Shown one piece after another: positions 7,122-36,994 of a stretch of DNA of 64,000 bases (within the stretch, counting starts at the first letter, position 1; each line of letters opens with the position of its first letter). The position numbers and the translations under genes are program-made. Source of the DNA: Dehalococcoidia bacterium. Its GTDB lineage: Bacteria > Chloroflexota > Dehalococcoidia > Lucifugimonadales > Australimonadaceae. The notes below the pieces were generated by a model. The model saw only the letters and a list, made by a program, of their open reading frames with translations, did no database searches and was not told where the DNA came from. Where the stretch lies: contig OZ244741.1 in NCBI GenBank assembly GCA_965219425.1, forward strand, positions 2,077,330 to 2,141,329, read 5' to 3'.

Positions 7122-7144
7122 CGCGGCGGGAGAGGAGACGGACC

Positions 7145-21001: not shown

Positions 21002-23437
21002 ATGAACCGAGACGATGAACGAGACCTGGTGATACAGGCACTGAGAGACCGGCTGTCCAGGCTGAGCGAGGCCAGCCTGCGCATCAACGAAAGCCTGGAC
21101 TTCGACACGGTCCTCCAGGGGGTCCTGGACTCCGCCCGCTCCCTGACCGGGGCCCGCTACGGAGCGATGACGCTCCTCAACGGTGCGGTCGAGCTTCCAC
21201 CCGATTGGACCCCCATGGCCAAAGCGCCGGACAGCAACGCGCCGCTGGTCGACTACTTCACCTCAGGGCTAACAGAGGAGCAAGTCCGCAGGATGCAGGA
21301 CATGCCGGAGCGGATACTCCTCTTCAACTATCTGAGCCGGATTCCAGAGACGTTGCGGATTCCCGACCTCGCCAGCCACACCATCTCTCTGGGTATGGCC
21401 GAGTTCACCGCCCTGCCGGTGGGGCCGTTCCTGTCAGCGCCCCTCCTCCACCAGGGCGACTTCGTGGGCGTCATCTTCCTGGCCAGGGATACCGGGATGG
21501 AAGAGTTTGGCCAGGAGGACGAGGAGACGTTGGTGATGTTCGCGTCCCAGGCGGCAATGGTCATCGCCAACGCCCGCCGGTACCGGGAGGAGCAGCGGGC
21601 CAGGAACGACCTGGAGACGCTGATCAACATCTCTCCGGTGGGTGTGGCGGTCTTCGACGCGAAGACCGGGGCGCCGGTGTCCTTCAACCGGGAAGCCGTG
21701 CGAATCGTCGACAGCCTGCGCGACCCGGACCAATCCCCGGAGCAGTTGCTGGAAGTTCTGTCCTATCGAAGGGCCGACGGACGGGAGATTGCTCCGTTCG
21801 ACATAGCCAAGGAGCTGATCGCAGGGGACACCGTGCGGGCCGAGGAGATCTTCATCGAGGTCCCCGACGGGCGCAGCGTCACCACCCTGGTGAACGGCAC
21901 TCCCATCCGTGGGGAGGATGGCCGAATCGTGTCGGTGGTTGTGACCCTACAGGACATGACGGAGTTGGAGGAGCTGGAGCGGCTCCGGGCCGAGTTCCTG
22001 GCAATGGTGAGCCACGAGCTGCGCACGCCCCTGACCTCGGTCAAGGGCTCCATCGCTACCCTGTTGGACCCCCCATCCGCCCTCGGCCCGACCGAGATGA
22101 GGCAGTTCTTCCGGATCATCGACTCGCAGATAGACCGGATGCACGTGCTGATAAGCGACCTGCTGGACGTGGCCCGCATCGAGACGGGCACGCTTGCGGT
22201 CTCACCCGAACCGACGGACGTGGCCATACTGGTGGGGGAGGCCGGCAACGGCTTTCGCAGCGCCGGGGGCAGGCACAACATCGAGGTCGAGCTTGCTCCG
22301 GACCTGCCCTGGGTCATGGCCGACCGGCTGCGCATGGTGCAGGTGCTGGGCAATCTGTTGACCAACGCGGCCCGGCACTCGCCCGAGTCGTCCATCATCC
22401 GGGTGACCGCCGTGGGGGAAGGGGTCCACGTTGCGGTGTCGGTCTCCGACCATGGTAGAGGCATTCCCGCCGAGAGCCTGCCGCACCTGTTCCGCAAGTT
22501 CTCCCGGATAGAGTCCCAGGAGCAGGGGGGCGACACGGGCCTAGGCCTTGCCATATGCAAGGGGATAGTTGAAGCGCTCGGGGGCCGCATTTGGGCCGAG
22601 AGCGACGGGCCGGGGCTGGGCGCGCGGTTCACCTTCACCCTTCCGACGGTCGAGCAGGCCGGGTACGTCTCTCCGGTGGCCCCCTCCCGGCCCTCGTCCC
22701 GCTCTGCGCGGCGGGCCGAAGCGCTGCGCATCCTGGCCGTGGACGACGACCTCCAGGCCCTCAGGTACGTCCGCGACACTCTCATGAAGGCGGGGTTCGA
22801 ACCGATGGTGACAGCGGACCCGGAGGAGGTGCTGCGTCTCGTGGAGGAGTACAAGCCCCACCTGGTGCTGCTGGACCTGGTGCTCCCGGGTGTCGACGGG
22901 ATGGATCTGATGAAGGACATTGCAGAGATGACGGACGTGCCGGTCATCTTCCTGTCAGCCTACGGCCAGGACAGGCTCGTTGCCAGGGCCTTCGACATGG
23001 GCGCCGCCGACTATATGGTCAAGCCGTTCTCACCGACGGAGCTGTCGGCCAGGATCAGGGCCGCTCTTCGCCGACGAGAGGTACCCAAGCCGTCGGAGCC
23101 CTATGTGTTGGGCGATCTGACCATCGACTATGACGAGCGCCGGGTGACCCTCACCGGCCGCCCGGTGGAGCTGACCGCCAAGGAGTACAGGACGCTGGCC
23201 GAACTGTCGATCAACGCCGGGCGTGTGCTGACCTACGAGACTCTGCTGCGCCGGGTGTGGGGGCTCGACGCCGACGCCGACATTCGCCCGATGCGGACCA
23301 CCATAAGCAGCATCCGCCGCAAGCTGGACGACGATGCTGAGAACCCCGCCTACATCTTCACGGAGCTCCGCGTCGGCTACCGGATGCCCAAGGGGGAGAA
23401 GCCGGCGCAGGAGACAGAACCGCCCGCGGCCCTATGA
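21002..23437 (+). CDS. hybrid sensor kinase / OmpR-type response regulator (GAF-PAS-HisKA-HATPase-REC-wHTH), no TM segment seen
   Basis: SHELRTPLTSV H-box, NLLTNAARHS N-box, GLGLAICKGIVEALGG G-box, ILAVDDD...LLDLVLPGVDG REC, YIFTELRVGYRMP winged helix. Confidence 0.9.
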   Translation: MNRDDERDLVIQALRDRLSRLSEASLRINESLDFDTVLQGVLDSARSLTGARYGAMTLLNGAVELPPDWTPMAKAPDSNAPLVDYFTSGLTEEQVRRMQDMPERILLFNYLSRIPETLRIPDLASHTISLGMAEFTALPVGPFLSAPLLHQGDFVGVIFLARDTGMEEFGQEDEETLVMFASQAAMVIANARRYREEQRARNDLETLINISPVGVAVFDAKTGAPVSFNREAVRIVDSLRDPDQSPEQLLEVLSYRRADGREIAPFDIAKELIAGDTVRAEEIFIEVPDGRSVTTLVNGTPIRGEDGRIVSVVVTLQDMTELEELERLRAEFLAMVSHELRTPLTSVKGSIATLLDPPSALGPTEMRQFFRIIDSQIDRMHVLISDLLDVARIETGTLAVSPEPTDVAILVGEAGNGFRSAGGRHNIEVELAPDLPWVMADRLRMVQVLGNLLTNAARHSPESSIIRVTAVGEGVHVAVSVSDHGRGIPAESLPHLFRKFSRIESQEQGGDTGLGLAICKGIVEALGGRIWAESDGPGLGARFTFTLPTVEQAGYVSPVAPSRPSSRSARRAEALRILAVDDDLQALRYVRDTLMKAGFEPMVTADPEEVLRLVEEYKPHLVLLDLVLPGVDGMDLMKDIAEMTDVPVIFLSAYGQDRLVARAFDMGAADYMVKPFSPTELSARIRAALRRREVPKPSEPYVLGDLTIDYDERRVTLTGRPVELTAKEYRTLAELSINAGRVLTYETLLRRVWGLDADADIRPMRTTISSIRRKLDDDAENPAYIFTELRVGYRMPKGEKPAQETEPPAAL

Positions 23438-24390
23438 GCCGCCGTTTCCTACCTTATATAGGGAGTGAGATGCCCCATCCCGACCTCGCCACAGTCACCG
23501 GCGCCTTCAGCTATACAGGAAGGTACGTCGCCCGGCGTTTGCTAGACCAGGGCGTCCATGTAAGGACCCTCACCCGCAGCCCGAACGCGGAGGACCCCTT
23601 GGCCGACCATGTGGAGGCGGCCCCCCTGGACTTCTCAGACCCCGACGGGCTGAGCCGCTCGATGCAGGGGGCGGGAGTCCTCTACAACACCTACTGGATT
23701 CGGTACGCCCATGGCCGGATCACCTTCGACCTCGCGGTCGAGAACACCAGGACGCTGTTCGAGGTTGCCAAGAGGGCGGGCGTCGGCAGGATCGTCCACT
23801 TCTCGGTGACCAACCCCTCACCAGAGTCCGCGCTGCCGTATTTCAGGGCCAAGGCGCAGGTAGAGGACATGCTGACGAACCTCGGAATCCCCTACGCCAT
23901 CGTCAGGCCGACTCTCGTCTTCGGGGTGGGAGACCTGCTTCTCAACAACATGGCCTGGGCGTTACGGCGCTTCCCATTCTTCCCCGTCTACGGGAGGGGC
24001 GACTATCCGGTCCAGCCCGTCTACGTGGAAGACCTTGCGGCCCAGGCGGTGGAGGCCGGCTCTCAGAGCGAGAACTCCGTGGCTGACGCTGCCGGGCCGG
24101 ACACCTTCTCCTTCGAGGGCCTGCTTCGCCTGCTGGCCTCTGCAATGGGCGTGCGTGCCAGGCTGGTGCGCACTCCCCCGACAGTGGGTCTCGCCTTGAC
24201 CGGGCTGGTGGGCCTCCTGATGCGCGACATGGCACTCACCCGCGACGAGGTTGACGGCCTCACGGCCGGGCTGTTGACATCCGACGCCGCTCCGACCGGC
24301 ACGACCAGGCTGAGCGACTGGCTCAAGGATAACGCGGACGGCCTGGGCCGCCGGTATGTGTCTGAGCTTCGGCGTAACTACCGGAGGTAG
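23434..24390 (+). CDS. NAD(P)-binding SDR/NmrA-like oxidoreductase or epimerase
   Basis: ATVTGAFSYTGRYVARRLLDQG glycine-rich Rossmann motif. The start may be the internal ATG at 23470. Confidence 0.75.
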   Translation: MSRRFLPYIGSEMPHPDLATVTGAFSYTGRYVARRLLDQGVHVRTLTRSPNAEDPLADHVEAAPLDFSDPDGLSRSMQGAGVLYNTYWIRYAHGRITFDLAVENTRTLFEVAKRAGVGRIVHFSVTNPSPESALPYFRAKAQVEDMLTNLGIPYAIVRPTLVFGVGDLLLNNMAWALRRFPFFPVYGRGDYPVQPVYVEDLAAQAVEAGSQSENSVADAAGPDTFSFEGLLRLLASAMGVRARLVRTPPTVGLALTGLVGLLMRDMALTRDEVDGLTAGLLTSDAAPTGTTRLSDWLKDNADGLGRRYVSELRRNYRR

Positions 24391-24492
24391 GCGCCATTCG
24401 TCGCGAGGTATGTCGGCGTCGCGTTGCGCATATCCACCTCAAGGAGTGCTGTAGTAATTTACAGCGAATCTTTTGGAGGTTCTGGCCAGCAA

Positions 24493-25029
24493 CTAAGAAA
24501 CTGGAGAGTCCGAATTCACACCGGCATTCGCCTCTTCGGCAGAGTCATTTTCCCGGACTCTCAACGATGACAATTCGGTATTTCGCCTTGTGGCCTGAAT
24601 CGAATCTGGCGGGTGGGCTAGTCTCTCGAATACACCAAGACTACTGATTTGCTTGGCGGCGAACTCAAACAGACTCTTGCGTGATCTTATTCGATTTTTG
24701 ATGTCGATGCTCAGAAGTAACTCGATAATCTCTTCCGTATCAGGGTCTACATCGCTAAAATACTGTAGTATTTCCGAGTCTGACAGCTGCTTCAAGTCAT
24801 CCAGGGATTTTCCTATCCGACGATCTACGTGCTTGACAATGGCAATTGCCACTTCCGATTTTGGAGTCCGTTTCGGTAGACGGATTCCCAGATGCTCGGC
24901 AGTCTTCAACAGTTCTTCCATACGGATTTTGTCGCTACGCGAGAGAGCGACCTGCGCCCCCTGTCGTCCGACAATCTCCACCAATGTCTTGATGTCATCA
25001 GATGCAATAGTCATGTTGAGATGCCTCAT
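24493..25029 (-). CDS. hypothetical protein, downstream partner of ParA (AT-richer)
   Basis: 178-aa ORF directly abutting the ParA stop. No motif recognised. Confidence 0.55.
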   Translation of the reverse strand: MRHLNMTIASDDIKTLVEIVGRQGAQVALSRSDKIRMEELLKTAEHLGIRLPKRTPKSEVAIAIVKHVDRRIGKSLDDLKQLSDSEILQYFSDVDPDTEEIIELLLSIDIKNRIRSRKSLFEFAAKQISSLGVFERLAHPPDSIQATRRNTELSSLRVRENDSAEEANAGVNSDSPVS

Positions 25030-25947
25030 TCATACGAGCTGTACGATCTCATCAACCAACTGTTTGTATTGCTCAGCCTGCTTCCTGGCGTTAAGCCCAT
25101 CAGTGTCGTAGACCGTGGTTCCGATCGCTGCGGCTTGTCGAATCCCATCACCTTCGGTTACATACGTGTCTAGAATTCCAGTGGTTCGTCTGAGTCTGTT
25201 GAAGATGAGCTGCTCGGAGTATTTCAAACCCCCGCCGTACTCTCGACACATCATCCCAGCAGCGCCCAAGAACTCCGTATCTTTGTAATCCGGCGCGACA
25301 TTGACCATCACAGCTACTGCCTGCATATCCTCGTTGACGTTGCGAATCGCCTCGACGGTTGAGGGTACGCCGGTGGCTGATTGGTTGTCTAGTTTCACTG
25401 GCGAGATGCACTTATCGGATGCGAATATCACAGCCTTTTCTAGATCATCAAGATCAGGATGGCTGTCGATTAGTACGAAGTCATAAGGCTCTTCAGGATC
25501 GTCTATTGATCTGAGGGACTCTCGGATGAGACCGAGATGACGAACGAGCATGTCATTATTCGCCCTCAAACTATTCGTAGGAGGCATCTTATCAACGGAG
25601 ACCGAGTTCAACCGTGGATCGGCCGGCACCAAGTCGATATCGTCTGTAGTTGGTAACACAGTGAGGGGCGGAAGATCCTGGATACCACTATAGAATGCTT
25701 GGTACAGATGGAACAGGGTCGTATGGTCTGTTTCACCGAGGCGGAAGTCCTCCAACATTTCGGGCCGCAGGCGGCAGGTCAAACCACCACGCTGGTAGTC
25801 AGTGTCCAATACTAAGACCTTCTTTTTGTGGAACCTCACAAGGCCAACAGCCACGTGGTAGACGGTGGTGGTCTTCCCGACACCGCCTTTTTCACTTACA
25901 AAGCCAATCGTGGTGGCCACTGGCTCCTCCGTAGCGTACCCTTCCAA
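25030..25947 (-). CDS. ParA/Soj-family P-loop ATPase
   Basis: GFVSEKGGVGKTTTVYHVAVGL deviant Walker A and VLVLDTDYQ. TTG start in the track. Confidence 0.85.
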   Translation of the reverse strand: MEGYATEEPVATTIGFVSEKGGVGKTTTVYHVAVGLVRFHKKKVLVLDTDYQRGGLTCRLRPEMLEDFRLGETDHTTLFHLYQAFYSGIQDLPPLTVLPTTDDIDLVPADPRLNSVSVDKMPPTNSLRANNDMLVRHLGLIRESLRSIDDPEEPYDFVLIDSHPDLDDLEKAVIFASDKCISPVKLDNQSATGVPSTVEAIRNVNEDMQAVAVMVNVAPDYKDTEFLGAAGMMCREYGGGLKYSEQLIFNRLRRTTGILDTYVTEGDGIRQAAAIGTTVYDTDGLNARKQAEQYKQLVDEIVQLV

Positions 25948-25950
25948 CTG

Positions 25951-26000
25951 TATAGCCGACTATAGCCCTGATTCTACGTTGAAGCGCCTCGTGTATGCAA
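25951..26000 (-). promoter_or_regulatory. putative promoter (TTGCAT-18-TAGAAT on minus strand) with two TATAGCC direct repeats in the leader
   Basis: Plus-strand ATGCAA 25995-26000 and ATTCTA 25971-25976. TATAGCC at 25951-25957 and 25961-25967. Confidence 0.35.
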
Positions 26001-26278
26001 GGTGGAACTCGACGCCAACTCTTAGGCAAAAAGCATGTCAACCCTTCGACATGGTAGAAAATCCAAGACACCTGTCGTCCTCACACCCAACAGTGTCCCT
26101 CCCACTCGTCCGAACCCGTCCACCTGCCAGTCGTCTCCCGGGTCCCCTCGTCAAGCGCCACCGCTTAGTCCAGCGGAATCTGCAGGGAGTGAAGGTGGGG
26201 GCTTTGGCAAACGCCAGCCCGTCCCGCACCCTGGCGTCGATCTCCACCGCCTCGGCGAACATCTCCGGCCACCGGTGC

Positions 26279-27034
26279 TTGGTTTCGACCCAACCATGGC
26301 ATGACTGGAAGGGACAGGCAATTCGGCATCGCGTCCTCATGGTGGACGACGACCCGCAGACGCTGAGGTACTTCCGAGACGCGCTCGTCGGGGCGGGCTA
26401 CGCGCCGATTGTTACCGGCGACCTGCAGGAGGCGACGAGCCTTGTGGAGGCGAACGACCCCCACCTGGTCCTGCTGGACCTAGTGCTGCCGGAGACCGAC
26501 GGGATCGACCTGATGAAGGACACCGCCGAGACGAGAGACGTACCGGTCATCTTCCTGTCCGCCTACGGCTAGGACAAGCTCGTCGCCAGGGCCTTCGACA
26601 TGGGGGCCGCCGACTACGTGGTCAAGCCCTTCTCACCGACGGAGCTGTTAGCCAGGATCAGGGCCGCTCTGCGCAGGCGCGAGGTCCCCAAGCCGTCGGA
26701 GCCCTATATGTTGGGCGATTTGACCATCGACTATGACGAGCGCCGGGTGACCCTCGCCGGTCGCCCGGTGGAGCTGACCGCCAAGGAGTACGGGACGCTG
26801 GTCGAGCTCTCGACCAACGCCGGACGCGTGCTGACCTACGAGCCTCTGCTGCGCCGGGTCTGGGGGCTTGACGCCGACATTCGCCCCATGCAGACCACCA
26901 TAAGCAGCATCCGCCGCAAGCTGGGCGACGACGCCGAAGACCCCAAGTACATCTTCACTGAGATCCGCGTCGGCTACCGGATGCCGAAGGGGGAGGAGGC
27001 TAATATGTGGAGCCGTGAGCGGAGGAGCCGCTGA
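26279..27034 (+). pseudogene. OmpR-family response regulator interrupted by an in-frame TAG (or split REC/wHTH)
   Basis: VLMVDDD...LLDLVLPETDGIDLM...VIFLSAYG* stops at TAG 26570-26572, where the paralog in 21002..23437 has CAG (22967-22969). The reading frame continues as DKLVARAFDMGAADYVVKPF...RVGYRMP. The 5' limit is uncertain. Confidence 0.8.
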
Positions 27035-27136
27035 ACCGACCTCTATTCCGAGACCATCTGTGGATAATCAGGGTCATTAGGCCAGTGCTATTCACGGACA
27101 TCCGGCCACCCTGAACGCCGGTGGTTAGGGCTTGTA

Positions 27137-27922
27137 TCAGTGAGTCGTTGACGAGTCAACCACCTCCTTTGCCCCCAGCAAGGCCCGATGCGGAGAGAGC
27201 CTTTGCCGGTAGCTGGGGCCTTCGATGACGATCTGGTAGCTGGCGTTGGCGAGTCGGTCGAGGGCGCTGTTGCCGAGGATGGGATCGTCGAAGAGGCTGA
27301 GCCATTCCTCCACGGCCCGGTTGGAGGTGATGACGAAGCTGGAGACGCGGTGTCTGCTGATGATTAGCTCGTAGAGGTCGGCGGACTGTTGGGCGGTGAG
27401 CCGGTGGAGGCCGAGGTCGTCGAGGATGAGCAGGTCTGGGGAGAGGAACGAGCGGAATGTGCGTCCCACGGAGTTGTCGACCCTGGCTTGAGTCATGGTC
27501 TTGAAGAAGTCGTCAGCATGGATGAAGCGGACGGTGTGTCCGGCGCGGACGGCGGCGTAGCCCAGGGCCTGTGCGAGGAAGCTCTTGCCAACTCCGGCGG
27601 GGCCGACGAGCAGGACGTGCTCGTTGCGGGCTAGGAACTGCAGGGAGAAGGCGGCATCAAGGAGCCGGCGGTCCAGGGTGATCGACGCAGTCCAGTCGAA
27701 GTCCTCGAGGCGGGAGACCCGCTCGAAGCCAGCGCTGTGCAGTCGGAGCTCGATGCGCCGGTGGTCCCGTCGGCTGATCTCGTCGGCGAGGATGATCTCC
27801 AAGAATGAGGCGTAGTCCAACTGGTCCCTTCTGGCCAAGGCGATGCGCTCGGGCAGCGTGGCCGCCATGGGCCCCAGCTGGAGCCGTTTGAGCAGAGGCG
27901 TGAGTTCAGTGACACGGGTCAT
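27137..27922 (-). CDS. istB: IS21-family helper ATPase IstB
   Basis: LLVGPAGVGKSFLAQALG Walker A and LLILDDLG Walker B. Start at the internal ATG 27922 overlapping the istA stop. Confidence 0.9.
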   Translation of the reverse strand: MTRVTELTPLLKRLQLGPMAATLPERIALARRDQLDYASFLEIILADEISRRDHRRIELRLHSAGFERVSRLEDFDWTASITLDRRLLDAAFSLQFLARNEHVLLVGPAGVGKSFLAQALGYAAVRAGHTVRFIHADDFFKTMTQARVDNSVGRTFRSFLSPDLLILDDLGLHRLTAQQSADLYELIISRHRVSSFVITSNRAVEEWLSLFDDPILGNSALDRLANASYQIVIEGPSYRQRLSPHRALLGAKEVVDSSTTH

Positions 27923-29502
27923 GGCTGATCTCCTGGTGATGACTGGTGGCTGAGGGCAAAGACTGAGCCGGGCCGGGTGAAGCGACCCGCAGGCAATGGC
28001 GGGGGATGCTCCTGCACCTCGCTCTGCTCCAAGGCTTCCACCAGGATGCGCTCCACGCGACGCACGTCGATGAGGTCTACGGTCAGGGCCTTGCGGCATG
28101 CGGCGTCGAGGCGTTCCGGGGTGTAACGCTGGCCGAGGCGTATGAGCTTGTGGCCTTGCCGCACCTTGGCCCAAGGCAGAGGGCCGTCGAAGAGACGCTC
28201 GACGAAGTCAGCCACCGCGGGACCCTGCTCTGCTGCGCTGCGCTTGATGCTCTCAGGCGCCCGCAGGGTGTAGGCGGTCAGCTCCGCCGGATAGTCCTCT
28301 GAGTCGGTGGAGCGGCCACCGCGAGGCTGACGGGGGTGGAGCTTGATCAGCCTGCCCCGGTGGTAGATGCGCACCAGTTTGCTGCCCAGCCCGATCTCCA
28401 CCTGCTGGCCCGGCGGACAAAGGGCAGCCGGGACTGAGTAAAGGGCATATTGGCAAGCCACGTGGTGATCGGAATGCACCTTGGCCGTGCGCCAGTGAGT
28501 GACCTCGTAGGGCTCGCCATCCCAGGGAGCGAGGGCGTGCCGCTCCTCATCCTGGAAGACGACCAGGGGCTGCTGCCGGGTGGCGCCATGCACGCGATGT
28601 CCAGCAACATCACGACACCAACGTGCCGCTTCCTCCCTCAGGTGGGAGAAGCTGCTGAAGCTGCCGCCCTTGAAGAAGCGCTCCCGCACGTATTGGACGC
28701 TTCGCTCCACCTTGGGCTTGTCCTTGGGGTGACGCACGCGGGCCGGATCGGCGATGAAGCCGCGGTGCTGTGAATACTCCAAGAAACCCCGGGTGAGCCG
28801 GGGATGCAGAGCGTCAGCGCCCGCGACCGCGGCGGGGAAGTTGTCGATGACGAGATAGTTGGGAATACCGCCGAAGAAAGCCCAGGCCGCCTCCAGTCCG
28901 TCGACGACGTCTTCCAGCTTCTGGTTGAAGGTGGGCCACACGAAACAGTGCCGGGAATAGGCCAGCACCACGATCAGCGCCCACACCGTGCGGTGGCGGC
29001 CGGTCTCTGGGTCCGGCGCCAATCCCAAGCGTCCAAAGTCCAGTTCCGCCACCTCACCCGGTGCACTCTCTGCCATCCGAACGGTCCTGGGATTGCGCCG
29101 ACGCCAGTTGCGATGCGCCACGAAGCGATGGAGCGAAGCATAGGACACCCGACAATCCCGCTCCGCCAGCAACTCCAGGATGCGCGTCACCTGCAGCCGG
29201 TCGACGGTGAGCCACTGATAGATCTGGTCTGCCCAGGGAACCAGCTTGTCCTCGGCTGGCGTGGCCACCGCCCGCGGACCGGAACGACCGATCGCCGCCA
29301 GCCGATTCAGTTGCAGGTCGGTGGGCGCCGGTCCCTCGTGAGACACACCCAGCCCCTCCGCCGCGGCGATGTATCGTCCAACGGTCTCCCGAGACAGCCC
29401 GGTCCCCAATGCTATGTGCCGCTGGCTGCTCCCCGCCTGCCAGCGGCGGATGACTTCAGATATCTCCACTCTCAGCACCTCTTTATAGGCCATCTGCTGC
29501 AC
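27919..29502 (-). CDS. istA: IS21-family transposase IstA
   Basis: N-terminal HTH (ISEVIRRWQAGSSQRHIALGTGLSRETV). DDE-type core with AELDFG...VLAYSRH...IDNF. 527 aa. Confidence 0.9.
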   Translation of the reverse strand: MQQMAYKEVLRVEISEVIRRWQAGSSQRHIALGTGLSRETVGRYIAAAEGLGVSHEGPAPTDLQLNRLAAIGRSGPRAVATPAEDKLVPWADQIYQWLTVDRLQVTRILELLAERDCRVSYASLHRFVAHRNWRRRNPRTVRMAESAPGEVAELDFGRLGLAPDPETGRHRTVWALIVVLAYSRHCFVWPTFNQKLEDVVDGLEAAWAFFGGIPNYLVIDNFPAAVAGADALHPRLTRGFLEYSQHRGFIADPARVRHPKDKPKVERSVQYVRERFFKGGSFSSFSHLREEAARWCRDVAGHRVHGATRQQPLVVFQDEERHALAPWDGEPYEVTHWRTAKVHSDHHVACQYALYSVPAALCPPGQQVEIGLGSKLVRIYHRGRLIKLHPRQPRGGRSTDSEDYPAELTAYTLRAPESIKRSAAEQGPAVADFVERLFDGPLPWAKVRQGHKLIRLGQRYTPERLDAACRKALTVDLIDVRRVERILVEALEQSEVQEHPPPLPAGRFTRPGSVFALSHQSSPGDQP

Positions 29503-29754
29503 CTCGTCATGAAGTGCGGCTATGGTCTCCGATTCGGCGCGCAGGGTGACCGGATGATCCTGAATAGCTGGCCTAATGACCTTGAATTTCTCTCAACTTC
29601 CTGGCCTCAAGATCATGACTATTCACAACCATCCAGGTTTCTCCGACGAACGAGGTGACCCACAGGTGTCCATAACACCAGGCGAGGCTCTATCACCCCG
29701 GAATCGGGTAGGCCAGGGCTTGTGAGAAGAATCCAGCAGGAGGCTGACGGCAGC

Positions 29755-29813
29755 TTGCACCTGTCCGTTTCCCAAAGTAGAATACCGGTATTCTGGGTTT
29801 TTGCGGTATTCTA
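29755..29813 (+). promoter_or_regulatory. promoter TTGCAC-17-TAGAAT overlapped by a 16-bp perfect palindrome plus an extra half-site
   Basis: TTGCAC 29755-29760. TAGAAT 29778-29783. AGAATACCGGTATTCT 29779-29794. CGGTATTCTA 29804-29813. Confidence 0.5.
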
Positions 29814-29832
29814 GGCGTTTGAGGCGGATAAG

Positions 29833-30120
29833 GTGAGGAGCACTCCTAACAACAATGTACGACGGTCCGAATTGCTGACACGCCTATTCACGCCCGACGG
29901 TAGACCACGGGAAGGGCTGGAGAATCAGACATCCCTCAGTTCCGCCGATGTTGCCGCATTGTTTCAAATGACAGAACGGTCTATACGAAAGCTAGCAGCC
30001 GATGGTCGGCTGCCTCATATGCGTACTTTGGGAGGCGGACGCCTTTTATATCCTGTTCATCAGATCGCTGTGTTATACAGGAAGTTCTGCTCGCATTCCG
30101 GTCTCAACGAATTGCCATGA
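29833..30120 (+). CDS. excisionase/MerR-like HTH DNA-binding protein
   Basis: LSSADVAALFQMTERSIRKLAADGRLPHMRTLGGGRLLYPVHQIAVL fits the Xis-type HTH_17 pattern. GTG start. Stop overlaps the next ATG. Confidence 0.65.
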   Translation: MRSTPNNNVRRSELLTRLFTPDGRPREGLENQTSLSSADVAALFQMTERSIRKLAADGRLPHMRTLGGGRLLYPVHQIAVLYRKFCSHSGLNELP

Positions 30121-31370
30121 ATACCACTCCACAGCTTTGTTCTCAAGACTTGCCAGAGAACTTTACGCATCGGCCCGAACTCGGGAGCATGGCAACATCC
30201 AGAGACCTGCGAGATGCTCCGATACATCGATGGTTCTATTTCCTCCATAGCTATTCATTTCGGCTTGTCGAACAGATTGTAGACTATTGGGCGATTCCAC
30301 GGGGTTCGGTGCTGTTGGATAACTTCGCCGGCTCCGGTACGACTCTGGTCGCCGCCAAGGGACTAGGAATGTCGGCGATAGGTTACGACATTTTACCATT
30401 GGCAGTTACGGTCTCTAGGGCCAAGACCGCAAATTACGAGGTAGATTCGCTACGCGTGTGTAGCCAACAGATAAGGGACTACAGTGGAGAGGGGTTTCTA
30501 CCGTCTGGCCTTCCTCAAAGGCTGCGGGACGCTTTCAGCGACAACGAATTAGTGGAACTATGCACGATTCTTGAAGCTATAGGAGAGCTACCTGAGACCG
30601 AACGGGGCTTTTTCTTAATGGCTGCCCTTTCTACTGCATACGATTTCACCAGAGCGGTTTCCGATGGAGGATGGCTCAGGTGGACCGAGAGTCCAGACAG
30701 AGGACACGAGGTAAGGGATGTTTTTGAGCAGCGAGTAGGGCATATGTTGACGGACATCGGGGCTTCTGCGCTCGACTGCGATTCTACTCCGCCTGCAACC
30801 TCCCTAGGGGATGCACGTACGCTGCCGTTGCCAACAGGTTCTGTTGACGCAGTCCTCACTTCTCCCCCGTATCCCAATCGACACGATTATTCACGCGTAT
30901 TTCACATAGGATTGCTTCTACTTGGCGAAACCGAGTCAGCTGTCAAGGATCTCCGAAGAAGGTCTCTACGCTCGCACGTAGAAGCCAAGGAGTCAGATGA
31001 GTGGTCTACCCGACTGGTCGAATTTCAGGTCCCAGCCATTCTTCGCCCCGTACTAGAGTTCCTGCAATGTAATGCGGACATTCGAGTTGAGCGAATGGTT
31101 CGTGGCTATTTCGAAGATATGTTTTTGTCACTTCAGGAGGTATCCCGTGTTCTTCGCCCCGGCGGACGCGCAGCGCTGGTTGTAGGGAACGTACGTCATG
31201 CCGGCATAATGGTCCCGGTCGATGAGGTGCTCGCGAACTTGGCGATACAAGTTGGGCTTGACTTTGACACGGCTTGGGTGATGCGTCTACGTGGCAACAG
31301 CGCACAACAGATGGGGCGGTATGGGAAGGAACCGTCCCGCGAATCGGTAGTTCTGTTCTCGAAGCCGTAG
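30117..31370 (+). CDS. DNA methyltransferase (FxGxG then SPPY; N6-adenine or N4-cytosine type)
   Basis: LLDNFAGSGTTLVAAKGLG (motif I) upstream of AVLTSPPYPNRHDY (motif IV). Confidence 0.8.
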   Translation: MNTTPQLCSQDLPENFTHRPELGSMATSRDLRDAPIHRWFYFLHSYSFRLVEQIVDYWAIPRGSVLLDNFAGSGTTLVAAKGLGMSAIGYDILPLAVTVSRAKTANYEVDSLRVCSQQIRDYSGEGFLPSGLPQRLRDAFSDNELVELCTILEAIGELPETERGFFLMAALSTAYDFTRAVSDGGWLRWTESPDRGHEVRDVFEQRVGHMLTDIGASALDCDSTPPATSLGDARTLPLPTGSVDAVLTSPPYPNRHDYSRVFHIGLLLLGETESAVKDLRRRSLRSHVEAKESDEWSTRLVEFQVPAILRPVLEFLQCNADIRVERMVRGYFEDMFLSLQEVSRVLRPGGRAALVVGNVRHAGIMVPVDEVLANLAIQVGLDFDTAWVMRLRGNSAQQMGRYGKEPSRESVVLFSKP

Positions 31371-31374
31371 TGTA

Positions 31375-32397
31375 ATGAGCGCGTACTGGATGCGATGGCT
31401 CGATTTCAGCCGTTTGGCCGGTCTATTCGCGATAGTTGCATCGGCACCTGGCGTTCTCACTTCTAGTGAATTGGATAAAGTGGCTATAGAACAAGGTGTC
31501 TTTGTTGCCTCCGGTAAGCCCTTGGGGAAGTCAAGCCGATACCATCACCGACGAGCTCTTGAGCAGTTGGGCTTTGTAAGAAAAGATAGAGGGCGTTTCT
31601 TCCCTAGTTTAGCAAGGGGTGAGTGCGAAGTCATGGCTTCGACCGACAGACGGAACAGTTTGAGCCAGGAGCAACGTCTTCTGTTTAGCGAAAGAGTGTT
31701 ATCTAATGCCGACTGCTACGAGGTCTTTTGGAGTGCTTTCATGCCAGGGGATCGGCCGCACTCAATTGCTGACTTCATCCAGGCTGCCAAGCCAATAAGG
31801 CTGCAACTAGAGGAGAACGTTGAAAAGCCTCCTCTTTCGAAAAGGAAGTACCCTACATCAGTCCTCTTGTACGGAGCAGGCAATCCCAATCTACCCATGA
31901 GACACGCCGGGTACAATGCTGTCCAAGCGATTCACTTCGGCATGCGGCGCTGGGGAATCGAGCAACTTCGATTCTTAGATGAGCTTTACCAAGTAGGACA
32001 AGGACATCACATTTTCCCAATTGGGCTGAACTGGCGCTATGACCCAATTATGATGGATCGAGCTTTGTATGAAGAGTTACGCTTCGAAGGCGACTGGGCC
32101 ATGCCACGAGTCAGCGACCTCCTGTTGAGTGCAGCTATTCGACTGAAGGTTCCCATAAGCCCTTTTCGGGACAGACTGCAGACCTGGCTCAAGGAGTACT
32201 CAGGGGACGTGGCTCCGGTCTTTGTGAGTGAACGTATGATTCTTTTTGGCCGTTCAGAAAGGATCCACCAACTCGTTTTGTCTGGATTTCTAAGTCCACC
32301 CGATGGTGGACTAGTATCTCATCTAAAGGTTCACCGAGGGATCGTGGACAAACTGGAATTGCGTTTCGCCCGGGAGGATACTCATGGATCAGTCTGA
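31375..32397 (+). CDS. hypothetical protein (possible N-terminal winged-helix)
   Basis: 340-aa ORF 4 nt after the methyltransferase stop. RYHHRRALEQLGFVRKD is wHTH-like. No catalytic motif recognised. Confidence 0.6.
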   Translation: MSAYWMRWLDFSRLAGLFAIVASAPGVLTSSELDKVAIEQGVFVASGKPLGKSSRYHHRRALEQLGFVRKDRGRFFPSLARGECEVMASTDRRNSLSQEQRLLFSERVLSNADCYEVFWSAFMPGDRPHSIADFIQAAKPIRLQLEENVEKPPLSKRKYPTSVLLYGAGNPNLPMRHAGYNAVQAIHFGMRRWGIEQLRFLDELYQVGQGHHIFPIGLNWRYDPIMMDRALYEELRFEGDWAMPRVSDLLLSAAIRLKVPISPFRDRLQTWLKEYSGDVAPVFVSERMILFGRSERIHQLVLSGFLSPPDGGLVSHLKVHRGIVDKLELRFAREDTHGSV

Positions 32398-33550
32398 ACT
32401 CTTCGCCCGCTATGGACTTAAATTCAATCCATTTCCACCTGCCGCAACCGGTACGGCCTTTGCTAAAGAGCTGTGGGTCCCGTCATCTTGGTCTACGGAG
32501 CTGGGATCCGTGTTCACCGCACTATCAGGTGGGGAAGGACCAAAGGCTACGACCGTAGTCGGCGGCTACGGCAGTGGCAAGACATACGTGCTGCACTGGA
32601 TGATGGAGCAGCAGTTTAGACCGAATCGCGTGCAGCCGTATTACATAGGCAACCCTGGCTTGGCGTTTTACACGCTGGCGGACGATCTACTCAGGCAGAT
32701 CGGCCGTTACGAGTTTTCGAAAGCAGTGTGGCAGGCACTTTCCAACGAACACGGAATGTTTGCCAACCAGTCTTCGTTTGTTGAATCGCCGTTTCACCTT
32801 TGGTTGGAATCCCTACACACGCAAGCTAGCAAGACCGAGGCGCAAAGGCGATTGGCCACAGCTCTGCAAATTCTCAAGCTCACCGACGAAGAAGAAGTGT
32901 CCTTCCGATTCGCACAGATAATAGTCGGCACTAGGGACCGACCCTTCTTCACTTTTCGAGATTTTGTACCTAGGTCACCTACCTCTGTCGTCGCAGAGAA
33001 CCAGGAAACTCGCTATTTCAGTGCTCTCATCCGAGTCTTGCTCTTTGCTTACGGCTGGGATGGAATCGCATTCCTGCTGGACGAGTTCGAAGACGTTGCT
33101 CTCGGTAAGCGCTTGGCCAGACGACAGTCTCACGAATACACGTCTACACTCCGACGACTATTGGACGCCGCTGATGAGGAGAGATTCTGGCTTGCCCTCT
33201 CTATCACCCGAGAAGGCTTGGAGCAAACTAGGGTGTTGGAACCGGCGCTTCTCGATCGTTTTGGCGGTGAATTCGAGCTCAAGCCTCTTTCGGACGACGA
33301 CGCATTTGCCTTAGTTCTCCACCGGTTGCGCAGTGCTAGAGAAGATGACCAAGGCGAGACATTGTGGCCGTTCGAGGATGATGCACTGCAAGAACTAAAG
33401 GCTGTAAACCGCTCTAGCCCGAGAGCTCTCATAAAGATCTTGTGGCGTTCACTAGCCGTTGCGGCCCAGAACAACATTGCCCCTCCCATTACAAGGGACT
33501 CTCTCGTTGATGCTGAGGCGAGTCTATCGGAAGGTCTTTCGGCGGAATGA
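32384..33550 (+). CDS. P-loop ATPase, ORC/Cdc6- or BrxC-like
   Basis: VVGGYGSGKTYVL Walker A, IAFLLDEFEDV Walker B, SSPRALIKILWRSL sensor-2-like helix. Overlaps the upstream gene by 14 nt. Confidence 0.75.
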   Translation: MDQSELFARYGLKFNPFPPAATGTAFAKELWVPSSWSTELGSVFTALSGGEGPKATTVVGGYGSGKTYVLHWMMEQQFRPNRVQPYYIGNPGLAFYTLADDLLRQIGRYEFSKAVWQALSNEHGMFANQSSFVESPFHLWLESLHTQASKTEAQRRLATALQILKLTDEEEVSFRFAQIIVGTRDRPFFTFRDFVPRSPTSVVAENQETRYFSALIRVLLFAYGWDGIAFLLDEFEDVALGKRLARRQSHEYTSTLRRLLDAADEERFWLALSITREGLEQTRVLEPALLDRFGGEFELKPLSDDDAFALVLHRLRSAREDDQGETLWPFEDDALQELKAVNRSSPRALIKILWRSLAVAAQNNIAPPITRDSLVDAEASLSEGLSAE

Positions 33551-34320
33551 CCAACATGAATCTGCTAAAGTTGGCCTTCCTGGATACTAACGCTTTGGTT
33601 AAATTGTTCACCTTTTGGGAAGCCTGCCAAATCGCGAAGGTTTCATTGTCGTCAGTTTCCGGTTGGCAGTCTCTGCGACAGGATCTAGCTAATGCGACGA
33701 CACCACTTGTCTCGGCCCTGAAGAGGGATGATTTCGATTCCGTGCAAATGGGGTACCAATGTTTCCAGCGGCTGGACGCCGCCAAAACAGATTTTGGCTT
33801 TCTGTGCTGTCAGGTGAGCCGCTCAGAACTGCATCATGTCCTGCTTTCGGCAACGGCATCAGAAGAGCTGCACCGTCACAGGGTGCCACGCTCGTTGGCA
33901 AACAAGCGCCCTCTGATAGTGCATCAACTTGCCCTGCCTTCTAATGCATACTCTGAGCTCGAAACCGAAATAGAAAGTTTCTTTGATACTATGAGAAATG
34001 TGCACTCGATAAACATCAAGACCCTTGAAGACCCAGCGAATGGCTATAACGTTGGTTCCGAGGACATATTCGAGACCGCGAGAAAGATATGGTCACATGT
34101 GTTGATGGAAACTATGGACTCATACATTTTCGCTGCTGCGATCCAAGCTGAAGCAGACTACTTGATGACTTCTGACGGCGCGTTCCGGAATACCGTAAAC
34201 GGTCTCCAACAGGGTCAAGGAGAATGGCAGGTTGTGGCGTCCGCGCTAAAGGTTGCATTGGGAAACAATCAGTCCTCCTCTTTCCCAAAGGGCATTGGAC
34301 TTACCAGCCCCTTGACTTGA
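33547..34320 (+). CDS. PIN-domain nuclease
   Basis: LAFLDTNALVKL (first Asp), SRSELHH (Glu), METMDSYIFAAA and YLMTSDGAF (distal Asp residues) in the canonical PIN order. ATGA overlap with the ATPase. Confidence 0.7.
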   Translation: MTNMNLLKLAFLDTNALVKLFTFWEACQIAKVSLSSVSGWQSLRQDLANATTPLVSALKRDDFDSVQMGYQCFQRLDAAKTDFGFLCCQVSRSELHHVLLSATASEELHRHRVPRSLANKRPLIVHQLALPSNAYSELETEIESFFDTMRNVHSINIKTLEDPANGYNVGSEDIFETARKIWSHVLMETMDSYIFAAAIQAEADYLMTSDGAFRNTVNGLQQGQGEWQVVASALKVALGNNQSSSFPKGIGLTSPLT

Positions 34321-35250
34321 CTTCCAATGGACCTCGATACAAGAGGCGGTAAGTGGATTGGAATTGAGTAGGGCCGTGGCGTAGAGAGGCCTGGTCGCTG
34401 CGGATTTGGGGCATGTCCGCAGGAATTGCCGTTGGGTTGCCGCCGTATCTTGGGGCTTAGGACAATGTTGGGGCTCACTACCCCTGCCTTAGTCGGGCAG
34501 AGTTGGGCGGTGTCTGAGTTTAACAAGCCCAATTGAACTGTCTCCAAAAGAATGAACCGCTCCCCCATCTATTGGACCAAGTGGCCTGTAAGCCGCGGTA
34601 GTCATCCGGTTGGCAATGCTAACAAGACAAGATCCTGCGGAGGTAGGTCTCCGAGGAGCCAATCGGGCCGCCCCGCAACGTAACAGTGCGTGCCGCGCTG
34701 AAGCTTCTTCCGGGCATCATCCAGGGACTCTGGCCCAGTTGACAGAGATCGAACCAGTCATGGGAGAGCCAACTCGTCCGTCCCGGCTCGCTAGCTCAAG
34801 CTCCAGAAGGTTTAGCTGGCCTCGGTGTGCTCACTTGGTCGCGCGTCACGCCCGTTCCCAATAGACCCACCGCCTCCGGCATGCTGCTGTGAGGCACGCT
34901 AGTGTCTAACAATCTGACCTGGCTTGAATGGACCCAAACCGACCGCCCACGAGTACTTAAATTTTCCGTGTCGATTGAGTCCGTCAAATGAAGATTCTTG
35001 ATTTTTCCAGTCCGGTGGTCCCGAAGAGACTTGAGCTTTCCGTGAGGACTCCGGTGCTGCGGATCACAGGCCTCCGAGCCAAAGTTCGAAGATGGTTCTG
35101 TCTACCGTGAAGAAAGGCCCACCAACGAAGACTCGAACCGCATTCGTCGTCTTAGGCGCGCCGCTGCCTGCCGGGATCTCAAGCTACTGCCCGCAAGTAC
35201 CGACTTTCCCCTGCTACTACCTCTCACCCACGGGGGAAGCCGGAGGGGGC
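34321..35250. other. about 0.93-kb region without a credible ORF (candidate structured RNA or decayed DNA)
   Basis: Only three short ORFs (63-99 aa) with no motif. Stops in all frames. Several short perfect hairpins, e.g. CTGCGGA/TCCGCAG at 34398-34422. Confidence 0.3.
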
Positions 35251-35280
35251 TTGACATAACCGACAATTCTATGTCATAAT
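35251..35280 (+). promoter_or_regulatory. sigma70-like promoter TTGACA-18-CATAAT containing inverted repeat GACATA/TATGTC
   Basis: TTGACA 35251-35256. CATAAT 35275-35280. GACATA (35253-35258) and TATGTC (35270-35275) are inverted repeats. Confidence 0.45.
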
Positions 35281-35317
35281 AACGTCACACACCTAGCATA
35301 GACCCGACACCTCCTAG

Positions 35318-36994
35318 CAGTGCGGACGAGCCGCCGGAGCAACCCTTGCCCGGCGGCTCTTTTCGTTCCTCCGGGCGCGAAAGGAGGACCCCATCAAACG
35401 CCCACCCGCCAAGGACGCCCCCATCGACCTCTCGCCCTATCGCGACGACCCCCTCGGGTTCGTCAAAGACATCCTCTCCGGATCAGGAGCCCCCTACGCC
35501 AAGCAGGAAGAGCTCCTCAACGCCCTCATCACCGACAAGCGACGCGTCTCCGTCGTCGGCTGCAACTCCTCCGGCAAGGACTGGGCCGCCGCTCGCGCCA
35601 TCCTCTGGTGGATCGAGACACGACCCAAAGCCAAGGTCATCGTCACCGGCCCCACCCTCCGACAGGTCAAGGAGATCGTCTGGGAGGAGTTGCGCGCCGC
35701 CCACGCCCCCGCCAAACACCGGCTCTCCAGCAAGGTCCGCGTCGGCGAGTACCGCGCGGGCCCCGACCGCGTCGGCCTCTGCCTCACCTCCAACAACCAG
35801 CACAACCTCCAGGGCTTCCACTCCCCGGAGCTCCTCGTCATCGTCACCGAGGCCCAAGGCGTCAAGCAGCCCTACTTCGAGGCCCTCAAGCGCCTCAATC
35901 CCAAGAAGATGCTCCTCCTCGGCAATCCCCTCTCCCTCACGGGCGAGTTCTACGACTCCCACCACGGCAAGAGCCCCCTGTACGAGCGCGTATCCATCTC
36001 CGCCTACGACTCCCCCAACGTCCGCGAGGGTTGTCTCGACGCCCTGCCCGGCCTCGTGACGCCCGAGGACGTGGAGGAGCGGCGGCGGGAGTGGGGCGAG
36101 GACTCGCCGCTCTACATCGCGTCGGTCCTCGGCCGGTTCCCCGAGGCCCTCGAAGACTCCCTCACCTCCCGTCCCCACGTAGACGCCGCCATCGAACGCT
36201 GGCGCCGCGAGTCCCCAGACCTCTCCGCGCAGGCGGGAATCCAGAGTGGCCGACAGGCCACGCACCCCCTCCCGCCCGCGGGGATGGGCAACACAACCTC
36301 TCCCCCGTCTGCGGGGGAGGCGGGGGAGACTGAGAGGGGGCCGTCTGCGGGGGAGGGGTTGGGGGAGGGGGGCTCGTCTGCGGGAGACCATGAAACCCCT
36401 CTCCCGTCTGCGGGGGAGGCCGGGAGGGGGGACCTCATACCGCCCAGCGACGGCCCCCACCTCAACCAGCCCTGGCGCATGGGCGTGGACGTGGCGCGAT
36501 TCGGCAACGACAAGTCCGTCATCTGCCTCCGCCGCGGCGACCGCGTCGAGCGCCTCATCACCTTCGAGCGCAAGGACACCATGCGCCTCGCCGACGAGGT
36601 CCGCGAGCTTGCCGAGACCCTGCGCGTCCCCGCCGTCTTCGTCGACGAGACGGGCGTCGGCGGTGGCGTGGTCGACCGGCTCAAGCAGCTGCGCGTCCCG
36701 GTGATCGGCGTCGAGGGCGGCGGCAAGGCCTATCGCCCCGCCCAGTTCGCCGACATGCGCGCCGAGGTCTTCTGGGAGGTGGCGCGGCGCCTGCGCGAGG
36801 GCCAGATGTCCCTCCCGCCCGACGACGAGCTGGCGGGCCAGCTCTTGGCGCAGCGGTACGACCTCTCCACCGCGGGACGCATCCGCCTGGAGAGCAAGGC
36901 CAAGCTGCGCCGCCACGGCGTCCCCTCCCCCGACAAGGCCGACGCCCTCGCCCTCGCCTTCATGGAGCCCCCCAACATGAACATCTGGTTCTGA
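35318..36994 (+). pseudogene. phage terminase large subunit (TerL) lacking a canonical start codon; orphan
   Basis: The frame is open from 35318 and encodes VVGCNSSGKDW (Walker A) before the first ATG/GTG/TTG at 35690. AAGGAGG (35381-35387) is followed by ATC at 35393. The C-terminus has the RNaseH-like nuclease motif GVDVARFGNDKSV...FVDETGVGGGV. No portal or terS genes nearby. Confidence 0.75.
36215..36445. repeat. cluster of REP-like elements inside the terminase ORF
   Basis: CCGCGCAGGCGGGAATCCAG (type B) followed by four copies related to CCGTCTGCGGGGGAGG (type A). Translated as SAQAGIQ and PSAGEAG repeats. Confidence 0.7.

Follow-up and report, generated by a model that had tools for sequence, protein, structure and literature searches.

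A sequence-specific DNA methyltransferase encoded beside a nuclease is a device for telling self from non-self. In Deinococcus radiodurans the characterised α-class DNA methyltransferase M.DraR1, in which the motif FxGxG is followed by a target-recognition domain (TRD) and then SPPY (PMC6712171), makes N4-methylcytosine (m4C) in CCGCGG within a type II restriction–modification (R-M) system and protects against the cognate nuclease (PMC6712171, PMC10855626); loss of the methylase from this system is toxic (PMC10855626). Larger gene sets surround the modifying enzyme elsewhere. The core of BREX consists of PglZ, the large BrxC/PglY protein (~1200 aa) and either a PglX/BrxX methylase or BrxP, and the BREX-related systems types 1–3 have a DUF499 ATPase and a helicase (plus a DUF3780 or DUF1156 methyltransferase) (PMC12839542). 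The authors of MADS model it in MacSyFinder with MAD6, MAD7 and MAD8 as mandatory components and MAD1 and MAD2 as generic accessories (10.1101/2023.03.30.534895). In the Ssp system, the triple-winged-helix protein SspB and the ORC/Cdc6-clade ATPase SspC have been proposed to scan DNA jointly (PMC10853773). Here we analyse a cassette of four genes, encoding a methyltransferase, a 340-aa protein that we call U340, a small ATPase and a predicted PIN nuclease, in a 64-kb stretch of a Dehalococcoidia genome (GenBank assembly GCA_965219425.1, contig OZ244741.1, positions 2,077,330 to 2,141,329; the window). Comparative sequence data make this cassette a robust, widely conserved R-M-like candidate defence system.

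Organization of the locus

A first-pass annotation of the window, made from its letters alone, had proposed a defence operon of five genes on the same strand, one of them for a helix-turn-helix (HTH) protein. The coordinates and + strand of all five open reading frames (ORFs) match that description exactly. They and the segments that contain them are:

29833–30120, + strand: HTH_17 ORF, 95 aa, GTG start; lineage-specific neighbour outside the conserved cassette
30117–31370, + strand: DNA methyltransferase, 417 aa; α-class amino-methyltransferase, M.DraR1-like
31375–32397, + strand: U340, 340 aa; founding member of an undescribed family, predicted multi-winged-helix protein
32384–33550, + strand: small stand-alone AAA+-type ATPase, 388 aa; BrxD/AAA_22/ORC-Cdc6-STAND-like
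33547–34320, + strand: predicted nuclease of PIN fold, 257 aa, ~120 of them in helical insertions
29619–35125: low-GC (~52%) island comprising the HTH ORF, the four-gene cassette and a non-coding tail of ~800 bp
30148–34327: the cassette proper, the segment common to an unrelated genome, L004

The tight packing of the genes was likewise reproduced. The HTH ORF and the methyltransferase gene share an ATGA overlap at 30117, a 4-nucleotide (nt) gap (31371–31374) separates the methyltransferase and U340 genes, the U340 and ATPase genes overlap by 14 nt (32384–32397), and the ATPase and PIN genes overlap by 4 nt, again ATGA (33547–33550). The block is AT-richer than its surroundings, as had been claimed: in the GC profile of the window, values of 0.52–0.55 across 30–35 kb compare with 0.63–0.72 on both sides, or in round figures ~52% against ~66%. 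All the quoted motifs are present in the translations, namely FAGSG before SPPY in the methyltransferase, GGYGSGKT and LLDEFED in the ATPase and the D-E-D-D order in the last protein. In the public gene calls of the source genome U340 has 335 aa and starts from M6, at 31390. Because W5, in the motif WMR, is at least 95% conserved in the 38 intact systems described below, we favour the longer, 340-aa start at 31375, and the 4-nt gap after the methyltransferase gene is therefore upheld.

The conserved unit has four genes, not five: the operon holds for the methyltransferase, U340, ATPase and PIN genes and does not extend to the HTH ORF. A functional unit of all five genes, with the Xis-like HTH protein as an integral controller comparable to a C-protein, would accord with the ATGA overlap at the methyltransferase start, with the Shine-Dalgarno-like GAGG upstream of the GTG start, with the position of the ORF in the same low-GC island and with a Pfam HTH_17 match above threshold (29.3 bits, cut-off 27). 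However, ~60 related loci contain no HTH homologue, and the ORF lies outside the segment matched by L004, a 94.45%-identical cassette that has no HTH gene and a different methyltransferase N-terminus. Nor is the ORF called as a gene in L059, a sister contig of the window, and an exact look-up of the protein retrieved no public record. We therefore consider a five-gene unit very improbable. From these comparisons the HTH ORF appears to be a lineage-specific passenger in the low-GC island and not a cassette component. It also has weak matches to NCBIfam BldC (1e-7), PADLOC mad1 (1e-4) and excisionase models. It may regulate genes locally, or it may be what is left of an excisionase from the mobile element that carried the island.

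Conservation and co-evolution of the four genes

By tblastn, the methyltransferase, U340, ATPase and PIN genes stand side by side in every one of 23 loci from genomes and assemblies, which belong to Dehalococcoidia, Caldilineaceae, Tepidiformaceae, Acidimicrobiales, Bryobacterales and Ca. Poriferisocius. Word-indexed searches gave 46 relatives of U340, at least 144 of the ATPase and 35 of the PIN protein, and an exhaustive profile search of 1.84 billion representatives placed 215 clusters at 50% identity in the U340 family. A remote U340 branch, at 20–26% identity, forms one family with the main branch by hhalign (E 2e-56). The metagenome contigs of this branch carry all four genes wherever they are long enough, except for one (L052) that has no ATPase gene. 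Four of four further contexts reached through ATPase homologues also contain the cassette. In total, 38 intact systems were recovered from Chloroflexota, Acidimicrobiia, Bryobacterales and metagenomes, with U340 identities as low as ~22%. The first-pass annotation had made its proposal depend on the 340-aa protein keeping company with the ATPase and PIN genes elsewhere; that synteny is present, and the genes are strongly co-conserved.

With these genes found together in over 40 independent loci, their arrangement is far beyond chance. The order methyltransferase–U340–ATPase–PIN alternates with U340–ATPase–PIN–methyltransferase, the latter in three Caldilineaceae-type loci and most remote-branch contigs, and in the remote branch the methyltransferase gene is sometimes upstream, divergent or split off by two inserted genes. 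Because the gene set is kept while gene order varies, we attribute its persistence to selection on function and not to inherited adjacency. Conservation among the 38 systems was also compared protein by protein. Pairwise identities correlate most closely between U340 and the ATPase (0.957), followed by the ATPase and PIN protein (0.874) and U340 and PIN protein (0.867), with correlations of 0.69–0.76 between the methyltransferase and the others. U340 and the PIN protein evolve fastest (mean identity 0.33 and 0.29, against 0.46–0.47 for the methyltransferase and ATPase). Because co-evolution is tighter among U340, the ATPase and the PIN protein than with the methyltransferase, these three proteins probably act as one restriction complex.

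Some remote-branch cassettes have genes for a NurA-like nuclease (~360–370 aa) and a HerA-like ATPase (~560–575 aa) tightly packed between the PIN and methyltransferase genes (L026 3437–6252 and L025 6624–9449; also L028 and L029), and the inserted HerA-like ATPase matches the PADLOC HerA and mad8 models. Decayed copies are also found, with a frameshifted ATPase gene (L001), a deletion in ATPase and PIN (L021), loss of the ATPase gene (L052) or a PIN protein of 166 aa (L062); such turnover is typical of defence genes. Nearly all carriers of L004 to L023 belong to uncultured lineages that are characteristic of the microbiomes of marine sponges (Ca. Poribacteria, Ca. Poriferisocius, Caldilineaceae, Dehalococcoidia, Acidimicrobiia and Bryobacterales), a possible habitat bias. 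L060 is flanked by sulfatase genes, and the remote branch comes from other metagenomes.

Mobility of the cassette

A near-identical cassette in a different genomic setting lies in L004, a Dehalococcoidia metagenome-assembled genome (MAG), where positions 4774–8953 match window positions 30148–34327 at 94.45% nucleotide identity over 4,180 bp between unrelated flanks. The match begins 31 nt into the methyltransferase gene and ends 7 nt beyond the PIN stop codon. Because these 4,180 bp are common to genomes with unrelated flanks, we conclude that the cassette moves as a compact unit. Divergence between the two copies is mosaic, with ~99% identity in the ATPase gene (range 97–99.5%), ~94% in the methyltransferase and U340 genes (91.5–96.5%) and ~78% in the 3' half of the PIN gene (its last 380 bp), and the PIN genes differ at 43 nonsynonymous and 34 synonymous positions. 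Such a pattern points to recombination between alleles of the cassette, or to diversification of the PIN C-terminus. The low-GC island as a whole (29619–35125) is horizontally acquired. Neither a tRNA gene nor an Rfam match was found in it, no direct repeats flank it, and promoter and terminator scans of it were uninformative.

The cassette might not be primarily anti-phage. It could be a selfish module for addiction or stabilisation, with the methylase as antidote and the ATPase and PIN protein as poison, or serve integrative elements in epigenetic control or DNA transactions, and be kept since its loss kills the host. Its transfer between genomes as a compact unit would suit this reading, as would the recombinases, integrases and transposases that adjoin it in several loci, the degraded copies (L001, L021, L052 and L062) and the known addiction behaviour of R-M systems (cited in PMC5499597). 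However, addiction does not exclude defence in R-M systems, and many loci have no mobile gene nearby. No copy was found in phages or viral contigs, and the plasmid collection yielded one remote ATPase homologue (23% identity, in another gene context) and no U340 match. We thus judge it improbable that addiction or housekeeping of a mobile element is the primary role. Some loci adjoin R-M systems of type I and type ISP and toxin–antitoxin genes, together with the integrases and transposases.

The methyltransferase

The methyltransferase matches Pfam N6_N4_Mtase (1e-12) and the PADLOC type II methyltransferase model PDLC03224 (MTase_II, REBASE-derived; 3.5e-54). It is colinear over its full length with M.DraR1 of D. 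radiodurans plasmid pCP1 (28% identity, E 7e-29), and the alignment matches LDxFxGxGTT, TSPPYxNxxxY and VLRPGxxAxxVVGN in full. The enzyme is thus a DNA methylase and not one acting on RNA or protein, and the motif order noted in the first-pass annotation is borne out: FxGxG (F70, G72 and G74; DNFAGSGTT) is followed by a variable middle and then by SPPY (S249–Y252; TSPPY). The FxGxG and SPPY residues are at least 95% conserved across the 38 systems, and conservation reaches its minimum at residues 100–160 and 200–240. Residues ~100–240 are a putative TRD. This layout of FxGxG, TRD and SPPY, together with the homology to M.DraR1, is that of α-class N4-cytosine methyltransferases. The product is likely to be m4C; this is the most likely modification because of the homology to M.DraR1, the invariant SPPY being only suggestive.

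U340

Neither U340 alone nor the set of 68 family members had a match in Pfam, NCBIfam or PADLOC, and a U340 profile found nothing significant among Protein Data Bank (PDB) sequences. By these searches U340 represents an undescribed protein family. An AlphaFold2 model (predicted local distance difference test, pLDDT, 88.7) consists of repeated helix-helix-helix-strand-strand (hairpin) units. A Foldseek search with this model returned only winged-helix proteins (IclR, MarR, MotA, TrmBL2, RPC62 and ESCRT-II) together with a weak SspB match, and a search of a viral structure library gave matches to single winged helices only. The residues W5, M6, R7, Y56, R59, C114, W193, W241, S315, H316 and H320 are invariant in the 38 systems, R59 being located in the first recognition helix of the model, and no acidic constellation of the nuclease-site type is conserved among them. 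U340 is accordingly predicted, from its modelled fold, to be a multi-winged-helix DNA-binding or adaptor subunit.

The ATPase

The ATPase scores 25.9 bits against Pfam BrxC_BrxD (cut-off 22.2) and also matches AAA_22; 29 of 29 relatives match both families at E <= 1e-3. Matches to the PADLOC and NCBIfam BrxD models are weak and largely confined to the P-loop region, and an ATPase profile retrieved nothing significant among PDB sequences. An N-terminal GLKxNPFPP motif precedes Walker A (G60–K66; GGYGSGKT) and Walker B (D233–E234; LLDEFED), both of which are invariant across the family. T275, R292, R314 and R347 are conserved in the 38 systems; the three arginines are candidate arginine-finger or sensor-2 residues, with R347, in an SPR motif, the candidate for sensor 2. 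The two Walker motifs and the Pfam family matches are those of AAA+ proteins of the ORC/Cdc6-STAND type. The first-pass annotation had likened the protein to BrxC/PglY or to ORC-type ATPases. Its second comparison stands, in that the protein resembles ORC, BrxD and AAA_22 ATPases, but a 388-aa protein is not like BrxC/PglY at ~1200 aa. On sequence criteria we classify it as a small stand-alone ORC/Cdc6-STAND-type AAA+ protein like BrxD.

One protein in the representative library (P0203, 712 aa) joins a U340 part (residues 1–314) to an ATPase part (residues 339–710) that is 47% identical to the ATPase of the window. If this is a genuine fusion, it would support physical contact between U340 and the ATPase; alternatively it is the product of a frameshift across the junction, which is possible because the U340 and ATPase genes overlap.

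A parallel arrangement was seen on a plasmid of the haloarchaeon Salinigranum marinum (NZ_CP100464.1, L024), where positions 4925–9108 encode a DpdA-like tRNA-guanine transglycosylase (TGT), a hypothetical 300-aa protein, an ATPase homologue and an HNH endonuclease, adjoining Csa3 and a second TGT gene. The haloarchaeal ATPase is homologous to that of the cassette along its full length (hhalign 99%). The 300-aa protein was considered as a U340 homologue and rejected, with hhalign probabilities of only 3.5% and 10.8%. This parallel suggests a modular family of systems, each combining modification with a nuclease around the ATPase as core.

The PIN protein

The last protein matches Pfam PIN (PF01850) with an E value of 4.9e-4 and 21.1 bits, under the cut-off of 23.6. 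Of 19 relatives, 11 reach E <= 0.01 with this Pfam model, the lowest value being 1.4e-5, and precomputed PF01850 matches exist for several relatives. A PIN-protein profile found nothing significant among PDB sequences. In the AlphaFold2 model (pLDDT 88.2), strands at residues 8–12, 83–87, 157–159 and 205–207 alternate with helices, giving the Rossmann-like α/β/α fold with parallel strands of PIN-like proteins, and the top PDB matches in Foldseek are all PIN or VapC structures (2fe1, 3zvk, 1y82 and 5ecd), with a probability of 1.00 and a TMt of 0.67 for 2fe1. The acidic residues D13, E94, D191 and D210 follow the D-E-D-D order of PIN nucleases, as the first-pass annotation had read it, and are the putative catalytic residues. 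D191 and D210 are present in 38 of the 38 systems, and position 13 is D in 36 and E in two. Position 94 is E in 32, Q in five and D in one. The Q and D variants belong to one Acidimicrobiales clade, in which the remaining three acidic residues are kept; its PIN activity may be altered or attenuated. No small partner ORF of the kind that encodes a VapB-like antitoxin is conserved beside the PIN gene among the related loci.

The identity of the substrate separates two readings of the cassette. In a serious rival to DNA restriction, the cassette would mediate methylation-guarded abortive infection: U340 and the ATPase would sense unmodified foreign DNA, and the PIN protein would be a VapC-like RNase that acts on tRNA, rRNA or mRNA and halts the infected cell, leaving the DNA of the invader uncut. 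The nearest structural neighbours of the PIN model, VapC-type toxins and the HARP RNase P, are in keeping with this, and the PIN effectors so far validated in defence, DS-3 and DS-5, are described as ribonucleases (PMC13092281). PIN endoRNases are also listed as back-up suicidal effectors beside BREX and Dnd systems. However, the PIN gene has no antitoxin-like partner, and the PIN-like superfamily includes the DNA nucleases FEN and Exo1, which appear lower in the Foldseek list. NurA and HerA form a DNA-end-processing pair. Because NurA-like and HerA-like genes are inserted in some cassettes, and because the haloarchaeal ATPase homologue adjoins a DpdA-like transglycosylase and, in the position equivalent to that of the PIN gene, an HNH DNase, we favour DNA over RNA as the PIN substrate. 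We regard the abortive-infection variant with an RNA-cutting PIN as unlikely.

A model for cassette function

On balance we lean towards the view that the cassette is an unnamed, four-gene, mobile, ATP-dependent R-M-like defence system in which the methylase marks self and U340, the ATPase and the PIN protein cut unmodified DNA. The methyltransferase would mark host DNA at a specific motif, probably with m4C. U340, the ATPase and the PIN protein would form a restriction module that evolves as a unit; within it, U340 would either read DNA or serve as the adaptor between DNA and the complex. The ATPase would assemble on DNA or scan it together with U340 and, at unmodified sites, use ATP to license the PIN effector. 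The PIN nuclease, held by its helical insertions, would then cut the unmodified DNA of the invader. We place U340 as the reader and the ATPase on DNA because of the analogy with SspB and SspC, the closest mechanistic analogue in the literature.

Several observations weigh against this model. The PIN model is nearest to VapC-type PIN proteins, which are mostly RNases, and its Foldseek E values (0.06–0.3) are not significant alone. In the Acidimicrobiales clade, the second acidic position of the PIN protein is Q in L003, L012, L014, L015 and L023 and D in L018. The alignment of U340 with SspB (6lb9), although full-length, has an E value of 0.029 and a template-modelling (TM) score of 0.29 and is likewise not significant alone. 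Several loci lie in ordinary metabolic neighbourhoods and not in defence islands, and the cassette comes in every case from a MAG of an uncultured organism or from a metagenome contig.

A more specific proposal is that the cassette represents a new class of ATP-dependent R-M system, with the PIN protein as the DNA-cutting subunit, U340 as reader and the small ORC-like ATPase as loader, built on a modular ATPase core that in other lineages would work with other modifiers (a DpdA-like transglycosylase) and other nucleases (HNH or NurA/HerA). We put this forward tentatively.

If the restriction model is correct, the cassette would be an R-M-like immune system made from parts not previously seen together: an M.DraR1-family methylase, a protein family without annotation, a BrxD-like ATPase whose role is open even in BREX, and a PIN effector. 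It would offer a tractable four-gene model for how ORC-like ATPases and multi-winged-helix readers tell modified from unmodified DNA, an open question for Ssp, Dnd and BREX, and could yield a nuclease and methylase that form a new sequence-specific pair. New defence candidates built on similar general logic are now reported in large numbers; here the comparative data argue strongly for a functional four-gene system. The cassette shows that conserved defence candidates exist in poorly sampled phyla (Chloroflexota, Acidimicrobiia and lineages associated with sponges) and are absent from discovery screens centred on E. coli and from plasmid and phage databases.

Flanking regions of the window

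An IS21 element lies to the left of the island, with istA and istB at 27137–29502 on the − strand (istA 27919–29502, istB 27137–28174). It was assigned by Pfam IstB_IS21 (5e-57) and by an IstA with rve and Mu-transpos_C_2 domains, and has 23-nt inverted repeats at 27063–27085 and 29568–29590. L059 matches window positions 29619–35125 with its positions 1450–6958 at 99.86% identity and is 100% identical to window positions 25594–27058, yet has no IS21. Because the sister contig is without it, IS21 is a recent insertion, at ~27059–29618, and its insertion point falls between a response-regulator gene and the low-GC island. The first-pass annotation had taken the adjacent IS21 as typical defence-island context. 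The adjacency is real, but an insertion that is strain-specific and absent from L059 does not provide such a context.

The response regulator (26333–27034), of the OmpR type, is split into a receiver ORF (25865–26572) and a Trans_reg_C ORF (26600–27034), and likewise in L059 (611–1441); the gene has either decayed into a pseudogene or is genuinely split. At 21002–23437 lies a paralogue, a hybrid kinase/regulator. A second low-GC patch at 24000–26000 (0.52–0.57) contains a ParA/AAA_31-like ATPase gene (25030–25947, − strand) and a 178-aa ORF (24493–25029, − strand), and may have been acquired separately or serve for the partition of an integrated element.

Beyond 35125, on the right, the window and L059 no longer match. 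In L059, 6958–8623 holds a large serine recombinase (Resolvase, Recombinase and Zn_ribbon_recom). In the window, 35125–36994 holds an ORF resembling a terminase large subunit, with a P-loop (GCNSSGKD), no in-frame start before 35690, an insertion of low-complexity repeats (SAGEAG...) and no Pfam match, followed directly by metG. This region looks like a decayed prophage or the remnant of an integrative element.

Comparison with known systems

We scanned the window proteins against PADLOC-DB v2 (5027 models, candidate systems included), Pfam and NCBIfam. U340 and the PIN protein matched none of the 5027 PADLOC models, and no paper describing the set of methyltransferase, U340, ATPase and PIN was found in the literature searched. 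The first-pass annotation knew of no named system with this composition, and these databases and the literature searched gave none. As far as these searches reach, the cassette is unnamed and apparently undescribed. It might still be a divergent member of a named system (MADS, BREX or BREX-related, Ssp/Dnd, DISARM or type I–III R-M). The PADLOC matches to mad1 (1e-4), mad2 (3e-10) and BrxD (8e-5), all weak, point in that direction, together with the Pfam BrxC_BrxD match over its cut-off and the weak structural echo of SspB. However, the mandatory MAD6–8 are absent and no mad3–8 model matches in the window cassette; PglZ, a large BrxC, a PglX-type methylase, DUF499, a helicase, SspA and SspD are all missing; and U340 and the PIN protein stand apart from every PADLOC model. 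Membership of a named system is hardly plausible.

MADS resembles the locus in having an HTH gene and a methylase gene at the operon start, genes for an ATPase and a nuclease, and self-recognition based on methylation. Among the five window proteins, only mad1 (1e-4) and mad2 (2.8e-10) were matched, with no mad3–8. MADS has eight genes, whereas the cassette has four, its neighbouring HTH gene is not conserved, and MAD6–8 are absent from it.

For BREX types 1–6, no PglZ, BrxC-length protein or PglX-type N6_Mtase was detected in the cassette or its relatives. The likeness is to BrxD of type 2 (Pgl) BREX, which is a stand-alone ATPase without extra domains (PMC12839542), and the cassette ATPase passes the BrxC_BrxD threshold. 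Unlike BREX, however, the cassette has no PglZ, BrxC, BrxA/B, PglW or BrxHI helicase, and its methyltransferase is like M.DraR1 and not like PglX. The partner of BrxD is a helicase, whereas the partners of the cassette ATPase are U340 and the PIN protein. BREX-related systems were rejected in the same scan, with no DUF499, helicase or DUF1156 match.

SspABCD shares with the cassette a rapidly evolving multi-winged-helix protein and an ORC/Cdc6-like ATPase beside a DNA-modifying enzyme. The modification is phosphorothioation there and base methylation here, and neither SspA nor SspD is present; the sulfur-insertion enzymes of Ssp and Dnd (SspA/DndA and SspD/DndC) are missing from the cassette and from 60 related loci. 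The PADLOC model of SspC has 1104 positions, against 388 aa for the cassette ATPase, and the SspC match in one cassette relative covers the P-loop only. SspB has no detectable sequence similarity to U340, and although it is the only full-length structural match of U340, that match is a weak one (TM 0.29). The Ssp effector is SspE or an HNH protein, in contrast to the PIN protein here.

We know of no restriction endonuclease for which a PIN fold has been reported. VapBC was rejected as a home for the PIN gene, which has no conserved small antitoxin gene adjacent to it, encodes 257 aa against ~130 aa for the toxin and lies inside a four-gene operon. The DefensePredictor PIN systems DS-3 and DS-5 consist of only one or two genes and so differ in architecture (PMC13092281), and the PIN-superfamily catalogue describes only PIN toxin–antitoxin pairs inside type I R-M operons.

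Type I, type III and McrBC/LlaJI-like systems, like the cassette, couple an NTPase to a nuclease and have a protective methylase, but the cassette has no SF2 helicase or translocase, HsdS or McrB-type GTPase. With classical type II R-M it shares a methyltransferase that has its own (putative) target-recognition domain. A single restriction endonuclease was not found: Pfam, PADLOC and NCBIfam give no match to a restriction-endonuclease family for U340, the ATPase or the PIN protein, and the known restriction-enzyme folds (PD-(D/E)XK, HNH, GIY-YIG and PLD) were not detected in the cassette. The nearest relative on the modification side is DraI of Deinococcus radiodurans, whose methylase is a full-length colinear homologue at 28% identity. 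On the restriction side the two differ, DraI having the single GIY-YIG enzyme R.DraR1 where the cassette has three co-evolving proteins.

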